From a phage, in assembly GCA_019897865.1 (NCBI GenBank), contig GCA_019897865.1_4532.1: DNA of 64,000 nucleotides. One strand, given 5' to 3'. A program made the translations under genes and the position numbers. Positions 52,272 to 52,753 of the stretch are shown here, piece by piece. The notes beneath the pieces are model-generated. The model was not told the origin of the DNA and made no database searches. It saw only the letters and a list, made by a program, of their open reading frames with translations. Every line of letters begins with the position of its first letter. The first letter of the stretch is position 1.

Positions 52272-52289
52272 TGCACACCTCCATTCTTG

Positions 52290-52500
52290 TTAAGATGTTC
52301 CGTACTGTACTTCATACTAATCTATAGATCAAGTATTATTTATAATAATTTATTATTTTATTTTTAATTGATAGAAGTTGATCTGTACGTACCAGTTCTG
52401 ATACACTGTACCTGTTTGTTAGATCTAATAATTATTTATTATTAATATTTAATAATTATTAATCTAGTACGGAGTACAGTACTTGAGTACAGAGTACTAC
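52290..52500. repeat. AT-rich divergent intergenic region with inverted GTACWGTAC repeats and direct AT-rich repeats (candidate origin/regulatory hub)
   Basis: GTACTGTAC at 52302-52310 and its reverse complement GTACAGTAC at 52474-52482 flank about 160 bp of strongly AT-rich DNA with repeated AATTATTTATTATT-like units and several (T)AGATC sites. Confidence 0.45.
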
Positions 52501-52753
52501 ATCAACAACCTAAAACCTTAACTCGCTGCGCTCGTTAATAGATTTCTAGGGTAGCATACTTCGAACACAAAAGTCAAGAGTTTTATTAAAAATTATTTTC
52601 TTTGTGCAAAAAACCTTGCTTAAATAGGTAGCAATAGTATAGCCTATAACATAAGCTTCATAAGAGGCTCGTAGAGCAAGTTCACTTACTAGGTAAGGTG
52701 ATTTATCATCTTATATATAAAAAGTGCGTCAGAGACGCGTTTAGGAGGCTAGA

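Follow-up and report, generated by a model that had tools for sequence, protein, structure and literature searches.

A probable compound divergent promoter region, with a reused promoter and mini-hairpin module, at a gene-orientation junction of Phapecoctavirus

The divergent junction described here is an intergenic region of 482 bp in a 64-kb stretch of phage DNA (contig GCA_019897865.1_4532.1; this whole stretch is termed the window, or the source window where it is compared with relatives). The window matches Phapecoctavirus genomes at 95-100% and is assigned to this genus (phAPEC8-like, ~150 kb). The 2 kb around the region matched 71 phage records at 80-100% identity, nearly all of them from Phapecoctavirus, a genus of Escherichia coli myoviruses with genomes of ~150 kb in the subfamily Stephanstirmvirinae. 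The original prediction, made from the sequence alone, saw the region as the divide between a minus-strand unit of small genes and transfer RNA (tRNA) genes and a plus-strand gene block, and the open reading frame (ORF) boundaries and the 10 tRNA genes on the minus strand (49370-51293; ARAGORN) agree with this. Leftward of the first minus-strand ORF, of 61 amino acids (aa), lie further small minus-strand ORFs and the tRNA block, while the rightward block is a run of small plus-strand ORFs with no function assigned. In the public records the region is unannotated except for a bare 'repeat_region' on one inverted-repeat arm (four records, one study), and a permissive Rfam 15 covariance scan of 51300-53200 on both strands gave no match up to E = 1. 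The features of the junction are, from left to right:

52086-52271, minus strand: left ORF, 61 aa, whose start codon bounds the region on the left
52272..52753: the intergenic region, the exact gap between the two divergent ORFs, 482 bp
52302..52319: inverted repeat, left copy, GTACTGTACTTCATACTA, which holds GTACTGTAC and overlaps the -10 and spacer of P_L1
52304..52332, minus strand: predicted promoter P_L1, -35 TTGATC (52332-52327), 17-nt spacer, -10 TACAGT (52309-52304), 11.1 bits
52334..52369: A/T block 1, a 36-nt pure A/T stretch flanked by the P_L1 and P_R1 -35 hexamers, a candidate shared UP element
52378..52407, plus strand: predicted promoter P_R1, -35 TTGATC (52378-52383), 18-nt spacer with TGn, -10 TACACT (52402-52407), 11.5 bits
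52417..52426, plus strand: TGTTAGATCT motif, just downstream of P_R1, which includes the third GATC
52426..52463: A/T block 2, a palindrome of 38 nt, all A/T, with 2 mismatches between its 18-nt arms, in the phAPEC8 lineage only
52465-52482: inverted repeat, right copy, TAGTACGGAGTACAGTAC, heading the repeat segment 52465..52497
52518..52538, minus strand: invariant box CGAGCGCAGCGAG (52534-52522) with UUAA/UUAA flanks, a hairpin on the non-template strand, ~+8 to +20 in the transcript predicted from P_L2
52548..52577, minus strand: predicted extended -10 promoter P_L2, -35 TTGACT (52577-52572), 18-nt spacer, TGC, -10 TACCCT (52553-52548), 11.7 bits
52581..52599: 19-nt pure A/T run directly upstream of the P_L2 -35, UP-like
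52616..52643, plus strand: P_R2, a weak promoter remnant, TTGCTT, 16-nt spacer, TATAGC, <7.5 bits in the source window
52681..52709, plus strand: predicted proximal promoter P_R3, TTCACT, 17-nt spacer, TATCAT, 9.6 bits
52726..52748, plus strand: 5' leader of the first rightward gene, with hairpin GCGTC-AGA-GACGC (52726-52738) and ribosome-binding site (RBS) AGGAGG (52743-52748)
52754-53077, plus strand: right ORF, 107 aa, whose ATG bounds the region on the right

This arrangement is probably a compound divergent promoter region that would be read by the host sigma70 RNA polymerase and serve both gene blocks. Promoter-like sites were computed with a sigma70 position weight matrix (PWM), scanned over both strands of the 64 kb and separately over five other lineages; their statistical excess, their positions across the six lineages, how they are oriented to the genes and where the P_L2 module recurs in the genome were likewise computed. 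The region holds four sigma70 sites of 9.6-11.7 bits with a -35/-10 spacing of 17-18 nt. On both strands of the window, 44 sites reach at least 11 bits, and 3 of the 44 fall within these 482 bp, a number attained by none of 300 dinucleotide shuffles of the region (mean 0.25). The -10 of P_L1 ends 32 nt from the start codon of the left gene, and that of P_R3 ends 44 nt upstream of the first rightward ATG. With the four predicted promoters, this excess over shuffles and a layout kept in five other lineages (see below), the divergent promoter region offered in the original prediction is well supported.

The predicted order is P_L1, the 36-nt A/T block, P_R1, a variable spacer of ~100 bp, P_L2 with its 19-nt A/T run, the decayed P_R2, and P_R3. 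We infer that these sites fire, such that host sigma70 polymerase would start transcription of both outward-facing gene blocks here. P_L1 and P_R1 stand back to back, their -35 hexamers (TTGATC, each on its own strand) being held by TAGATCAA (from 52325) and GTTGATC (52377-52383), and A/T block 1 may serve both of them as a shared UP element. P_R1 and P_L2 stand face to face, with predicted starts ~127 bp apart, and might interfere with each other, and the P_L2 transcript would open with a compact conserved hairpin, CGAGCG(A/C)AGCGAG.

The A/T-rich character of the region is extreme for this DNA. Both of the longest pure-A/T runs of the 64 kb (38 and 36 nt) lie within it, and it is the least stable duplex of the window at every scale tested, with a duplex free energy (dG) per 150 bp of -154.8 compared with a window mean of -193.4 (standard deviation 7.3). 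The third-longest run (31 nt, 44100-44130) stands directly upstream of a minus-strand TTGACA-17-TAGACT promoter (44040-44130), ~35 nt before a minus-strand gene start at 44032, in the format of P_L1. Because the 44.1-kb site and P_L2 share this layout, an A/T block followed by a near-consensus -35 appears to be the usual strong-promoter format of the phage, and the sequence expected of a UP element, an A/T-rich tract at about -40 to -60 that the C-terminal domain of the alpha subunit contacts so as to stimulate transcription, is present at P_L1, P_R1, P_L2 and the 44.1-kb promoter. Strong promoters with AT-rich UP elements are known from the T4 early promoters and rrnB P1. As in those, the A/T tracts here lie directly upstream of near-consensus -35 hexamers, an arrangement that recurs at 44040-44130; unlike in those, a single 36-nt block lies between two divergent -35 hexamers, where it is a candidate for the UP role. 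A pure-A/T run of at least 20 nt occupies the position of block 1 in five of the six lineages, and in phiWec179 it is interrupted by one C. The AT-rich direct repeats remarked on in the original prediction do exist, but at 71% identity in pure, low-complexity A/T they are not beyond chance.

The layout was compared across six lineages: the source window, phiWec188, phiWec179, phi92, Klebsiella phage FKP3 and Citrobacter phage Tr1. A homolog of the 107-aa protein heads the rightward block at the divergent junction in phi92, FKP3, Tr1 and the phiWec phages (33-48% identity in the first three, 93.5% in phiWec188, in which the 61-aa protein is 83% identical). P_L1, P_R1 and P_L2 have equivalents at corresponding positions in all five other lineages: across all lineages, the P_L1 -10 ends 30-39 nt from the left gene, the rightward P_R1 lies 130-150 nt from it, and P_L2 242-276 nt. 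P_R3 equivalents occur in two of the five, FKP3 (14.3 bits) and Tr1 (12.3 bits), at 42-43 nt upstream of the ATG, and all four promoters are found in three of the six lineages. The left halves of the junctions in the other lineages do not align to the source window, yet hold predicted promoters at equivalent positions; it is therefore the layout that is conserved, and not the sequence. P_L2 varies in the way expected of a promoter, with TTGAC(A/T), TGN, TACCCT and a 17-18-nt spacing invariant in all lineages and a spacer sequence that varies (N14-15 before TGN). The P_R2 equivalent of the phiWec lineage (TTGTGT-16-TGC-TATAGT) stands ahead of an extra 70-aa gene, which in phiWec188 and phiWec179 lies between P_R2 and the conserved leader of the 107-aa gene; at this place the source window keeps only the decayed P_R2 and a possible RBS remnant, AAGAGG (~52662).

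Promoters at a divergent junction have a precedent in phage rV5, in which bidirectional promoters were predicted, all of them resembling the E. coli consensus (Kropinski et al., 2013; PMC3606486). The rV5-like phages belong to the same wider group of large virulent myoviruses, and the two cases share host-consensus promoters, some with an extended -10, placed in a gap where divergent gene blocks need them. The rV5 sites came from a consensus search in a single genome, whereas here the layout proved to be conserved across six lineages; and, unlike the rV5 list, the present junction has two back-to-back pairs, of which the inner two promoters face each other, and one promoter with a conserved leader box. 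The likeness is therefore one of kind rather than an established homology. The two facing promoters, ~100-130 bp apart in all lineages, can further be likened to a different arrangement. In coliphage 186, pR and pL form a face-to-face pair with mutual interference; here, unlike there, no lysogeny switch is involved, and interference is hypothetical.

One element of the region that is conserved in sequence is the box downstream of P_L2. CGAGCG(A/C)AGCGAG lies 13-16 nt downstream of TACCCT in every lineage and folds (RNAalifold) into a hairpin of a C-G pair, tandem G.A/A.G pairs, a G-C pair and a C-G pair closed by a three-base loop (GCA in the source window); 3-4 covarying flanking pairs extend it, with one column that pairs poorly. 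The stem begins 9-12 nt after the -10 in all copies. In the source window the core is GCGCAGC (52525-52531, minus strand), and in relatives GCGAAGC or GCGATAGC. The source-window core falls under the definition of mini-hairpin DNA, d(GCGNAGC) or d(GCGNNAGC), as reviewed by the Hirao group (PMC13037366). This motif is known at the primase origins of G4, St-1 and alpha3, at RSF1010 ssiA and at the N4 early promoters, and as RNA it is far less stable than as DNA (PMC13037366). The box resembles these elements in its GCGCAGC, GCGAAGC or GCGATAGC core and in C-GA-G flanks that allow tandem sheared G.A pairs. It differs in its setting: the known mini-hairpins exert their effect in single-stranded DNA, at sites of primase or N4 polymerase, whereas the box lies in duplex DNA, ~8-20 nt into a predicted sigma70 transcript, and may act as RNA. 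5'-terminal stem-loops protect E. coli mRNAs from 5'-end-dependent decay. Most likely, we infer, the P_L2 hairpin is such a 5'-terminal stem-loop that would stabilize or mark the mRNA. Its position would also allow a role on a displaced DNA strand, while fitting an RNA 5' hairpin equally well. A BoxA/nut-like element was considered at this site and rejected: the plus-strand GCGCTCGTTAATAG resembles BoxA in the source-window and phiWec lineages only, and the conserved part is the box.

The P_L2 module occurs twice per genome, and in PD06 and Schickermooser the second copy shares the orientation of the downstream genes and lies within a DNA-metabolism gene block. In PD06 (phi92 group) it is on the minus strand, at a distance of 82 kb from the junction, and is flanked by the gp207 and gp209 homologs; the Schickermooser copy (~128.6 kb, minus strand), which has a GATA loop, is in a syntenic position. 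Downstream of the PD06 copy come a GTTCCTG/CAGGAAC hairpin, an RBS and an ORF of ~85 codons that is unannotated and looks like a membrane protein. Schickermooser also has a second divergent junction (130.33-130.44 kb), which measures only 118 bp and has no A/T block. In IMG/VR, the bare P_L2 pattern gave 96 matches, which by a rough estimate is near the chance rate, and the pattern was accordingly discarded as a widespread promoter class; pattern and box together are confined to Stephanstirmvirinae-type contigs. In at least eight unrelated metagenomic IMG/VR contigs, CTCGCTTCGCTCG is followed by GGGGGGGATAGGGTAT, in some of them as an inverted pair ~100 nt apart, and two further contig families (three contigs each) carry CTCGCTGCGCTCG...TAGGGTACC. 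The combination of box and TACCCTA may thus extend beyond one subfamily, or these may be chance matches multiplied by redundant contigs.

A second layer of the region consists of repeats. The inverted 9-mers with partly conserved flanks that were noticed in the original prediction, GTACTGTAC (52302) and GTACAGTAC (52474), occur once each in the 64 kb and are part of a longer, 18-nt inverted repeat with 2 mismatches (52302-52319 and 52465-52482). GTACTGTAC is also the reverse complement of the P_L1 -10 (TACAGT) with its flanks. The region contains two 18-mer inverted repeats (this pair and the A/T palindrome with its 18-nt arms), and none of 150 dinucleotide shuffles of the region reaches two; a single-strand DNA fold of 52295-52505 has z = -3.6. 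In the segment 52465..52497, GAGTACAG occurs at 52472 and 52485, with five AGTAC in total. GTAC is ~3-fold depleted in the window (65 observed compared with 205-228 expected), and 10 of the 65 sites cluster within 52302-52497, while no other 250-bp bin has four or more. The cluster, of which the original prediction had caught only part, comprises five CTGTAC/GTACAG hexamers within 200 bp plus the five AGTAC. No canonical promoter of at least 7.5 bits was found in 52465..52497 with the sigma70 PWM, and the segment 52426-52497 (the A/T palindrome and the five AGTAC) has no counterpart in the other lineages; a further promoter independent of a -35, an operator and an unwinding element are all conceivable roles for it.

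Other short motifs carry less weight. The (T)AGATC sites listed in the original prediction are present (GATC at 52327, 52380 and 52422; TAGATC at 52325 and 52420), but their count does not exceed chance (3 GATC observed compared with 1.0 expected, P = 0.08). In other lineages GATC, mostly as AGATCT, is enriched at the promoter part of the junction (5 compared with 0.7 expected in phiWec188, 5 compared with 0.8 in Tr1), often inside promoter spacers or -35 hexamers, and AGATCT is present one or more times in each lineage; the junction might conceivably be under Dam- or SeqA-linked control. TGTTAGATCT is also found in phi92, in Tr1 and at the second PD06 site, and its other four copies in the 64 kb are in ordinary coding context. 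As a promoter-associated operator, TGTTAGATC was rejected: it is enriched (5 compared with an estimated ~0.75 expected), but its other four copies lie in coding sequence. LexA sites were likewise rejected, the resemblance being one of half-sites by eye only. The GCGTC-AGA-GACGC hairpin does lie just before the first plus-strand RBS, as had been observed, in the short leader downstream of P_R3; its stability (z = -1.35) is not beyond chance, and it shows only partial covariation. Another candidate leader hairpin, at 52695-52712 (AAGGTGAT / ATCATCTT, with an apparent compensatory change in phiWec179), is better read as the spacer and -10 of P_R3.

Natural variants within the phAPEC8 lineage separate the constant from the variable parts: the A/T blocks and the center are invariant (block 2 among 12 sequences), and the GTAC boxes vary. 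In BI-EHEC, 9 of the 10 GTAC sites of the region are gone via transitions at C, with none left in 52465-52497, and TACAGT has become TACAAT, nearer to consensus, in both arms; in phAPEC8 the P_R1 -35 reads TTGATA instead of TTGATC. Both of these variants retain the promoter elements. The dw-ec record lacks 15 nt including the right GTACAGTAC, and the EP57 record lacks 38 nt including the left box. GTAC loss in BI-EHEC is genome-wide (OL505078, 30000-79000), with 11 of 23 aligned sites outside the region lost, most of them through a C>T or G>A change at the GTAC cytosine; retention of other 4-bp palindromes is 75-97% (87% or more for each with over 20 aligned sites). Because of this loss, GTAC as such is not required here, and the idea of GTAC boxes as essential sites is weakened by the BI-EHEC, dw-ec and EP57 variants. 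Restriction avoidance, deamination of methylated C or miscalling of a modified base are possible explanations for the BI-EHEC loss and the GTAC depletion. Further indels occur: the start copy of the nieznany record (MN850598) lacks ~63 bp, most of A/T block 1 and P_R1; BI-EHEC has a 10-nt duplication; and anhysbys, UP17 and Ro121lw have 8-9-nt duplications of TTAAAACCT. The indels in nieznany, EP57, dw-ec, BI-EHEC and others show that this DNA either slips easily or is difficult to assemble.

Several observations weigh against reading the region as a set of promoters, or limit what this reading covers. P_R3 reaches only 9.6 bits in the source window, and the P_L2 -10, TACCCT, matches 3 of 6 consensus positions and depends on its TGn extension; the bare P_L2 pattern proves nothing by itself, given its occurrence in unrelated viral contigs at about the chance rate. 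A literature search turned up no mapped transcription starts or other transcript data in the subfamily. Promoters leave the 38-nt A/T palindrome and the AGTAC repeats unexplained, as well as the inverted repetition of 18 nt, 9 of them spacer. In EP57 and dw-ec the deletions may be real or assembly errors. Finally, promoter function is compatible with an additional origin function.

A promoter followed by an AT-rich stretch is indeed how the T4 origins oriF and oriG and the T7 origins are built, and an origin of replication was the other option put forward in the original prediction. That the region is also a transcription-primed origin (of the T4 oriF/oriG, T7 primary or ColE1 type) appears unlikely. 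In such an origin, P_R1 or P_L2 would transcribe into the easily melted A/T blocks to form an R-loop, and the mini-hairpin box on the displaced non-template strand of P_L2 would be a single-strand initiation signal for primase or a primosome. The region's standing as the least stable duplex of the 64 kb fits this idea, as does, in the phAPEC8 lineage, the 38-nt A/T palindrome, which begins ~12 nt downstream of the predicted P_R1 start and covers ~+12 to +50 of its transcript. The box core, GCG(A/C)AGC or GCGATAGC, is the mini-hairpin DNA motif of primase origins (PMC13037366), and the likeness to ColE1, with its ssiA and ssiB sites (PMC3167613), and to the T4 and T7 origins extends to a promoter, an easily unwound AT stretch and, on the strand to be displaced by an R-loop, a stable hairpin. 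It is the non-template strand that carries the hairpin in its stable version; GATC is enriched at the equivalent part of phiWec188 and Tr1; and the phi92 14-mer CCGAGCGCAGCGAG also occurs in pMB1-type vector backbones. This 14-mer presumably lies near the ColE1-type primosome assembly site. A link to the pBR322/ColE1 primosome site was nevertheless not retained, since only the occurrence of the 14-mer in vectors, and not the functional core of ssiA, was confirmed. A narrower form of the idea, which we regard as very doubtful, holds that the P_L2 module is a transcription-activated single-strand initiation signal and that its two convergent copies are the Stephanstirmvirinae origins: transcription would displace the non-template strand, the mini-hairpin would form, and phage or host priming machinery would be recruited, by analogy with the G4 origin, RSF1010 ssiA and the ColE1 primosome site, with the A/T blocks as the unwinding element. 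Several observations speak against a transcription-primed origin. Unlike in the T4, T7 and ColE1 systems, a promoter with a downstream unwinding element (P_R1, then A/T block 2) is found in the phAPEC8 lineage and in none of the other five (phiWec188, phiWec179, phi92, FKP3 and Tr1 lack block 2), and the conserved A/T block 1 is upstream, not downstream, of its two adjacent promoters. The promoter-hairpin module also stands before ordinary genes: its second copies lie inside gene blocks, directly before an ORF and with no A/T block, and therefore the module works without origin-like surroundings. In every copy the hairpin begins 9-12 nt past the -10, which suits a stem-loop at the 5' terminus of an RNA. 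Apart from what the promoters explain, the origin option draws no support from skew, iterons, DnaA or IHF sites, or annotation. The cumulative GC-skew minimum at ~52 kb coincides with the gene-orientation switch; each of the three gene blocks has a G-rich coding strand (+0.14, +0.08, +0.17), and the plus-strand skew at third codon positions (GC3) steps from +0.03 left of the junction to +0.14 right of it, with no sign change independent of gene orientation. The same holds in rV5, where skew inflections coincide with changes in transcription orientation (PMC3606486). Despite the A/T element, the region has no iterons in the sense of three or more direct repeats of ~17-22 bp, its repeat families having two copies only; it has no strict DnaA box and one relaxed DnaA-like 9-mer (7 in the 64 kb, the chance level), hence no DnaA cluster, and no IHF consensus. 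Among ten neighboring proteins compared with Pfam and PHROGs none is recognizable as an initiator, although a novel one is conceivable, and the matched public records carry no origin annotation here.

The repeats raise the separate question of a phage regulator, whose binding to the region had also been proposed. The 18-nt copies and the AGTAC/CTGTAC repeats would then be operators for a regulator of the phAPEC8 lineage, controlling rightward transcription as well as P_L1, which has its -10 within the left copy; the 160 bp between the copies might be looped. An 18-mer inverted repeat far beyond chance, its inclusion of 9 nt of promoter spacer that RNA polymerase does not specifically read, and five CTGTAC/GTACAG plus five AGTAC in 200 bp of a GTAC-avoiding genome all point this way, and lineage-specific repeats are what would be expected of operators that co-evolve with their protein. 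A regulator of this kind is nevertheless quite unlikely. Pfam and PHROGs searches with ten neighboring proteins gave no informative match and no recognizable DNA-binding or initiator domain, and no functional PHROG annotation; phiWec188 has similar 107-aa and 61-aa proteins and no repeats, so that the presence of these proteins is not tied to that of the sites. Conservation of the inverted repeat is confined to the phAPEC8 lineage, and even there no part of the region is less conserved than the repeats, which carry mutations in BI-EHEC and phAPEC8 and deletions in dw-ec and EP57; the 64 kb holds no further copy. We found no evidence in favor of the proposed binding. The chance that the region is instead a physical genome end or packaging site (a terminal repeat boundary or pac) is practically negligible. 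The nieznany record does start and end inside the region, but its ends are a redundant assembly overlap, one copy of which has the ~63-bp internal deletion, and other records start at many unrelated positions. The Schickermooser record has an identical 329-bp direct repeat at both ends (the published terminal repeat is 328 bp; PMC6563267), which is dissimilar to the source window and lies ~54.5 kb from the region; a terminus or pac is ruled out as far as these termini are correct. The feature itself stands on solid statistics; the best explanation for it, a conserved control region with several divergent promoters, is ordinary.

Two observations concern the flanking gene blocks. The record of a close relative, ASO2A, lists 12 tRNAs in the same block, with an additional tRNA-Tyr and tRNA-Ser(TGA), and assigns the last tRNA with a CAT anticodon to Ile, not Met. 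In the rightward block, the product of 55049-55393 matches the cREC_REC domain (cyclic-phosphate processing receiver; Pfam E = 4e-17), and its gene lies just upstream of genes named metallophosphatase and RNA ligase in relatives; judged from these assignments, the three look like an RNA-repair cluster.

Phapecoctaviruses are often isolated and are used in phage therapy and biocontrol, and their regulatory DNA is essentially unannotated; the promoter map given here provides testable start sites and candidate strong promoters for engineering. It also carries a caution, as AT-richness and a skew minimum are insufficient for calling origins. On present evidence the region is an elaborate but ordinary promoter region, and the one element that deserves attention is the reused promoter-plus-mini-hairpin module. 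This module is invariant across genera; were it shown to act in priming or as a regulatory RNA element, the subfamily would gain a new cis-element.

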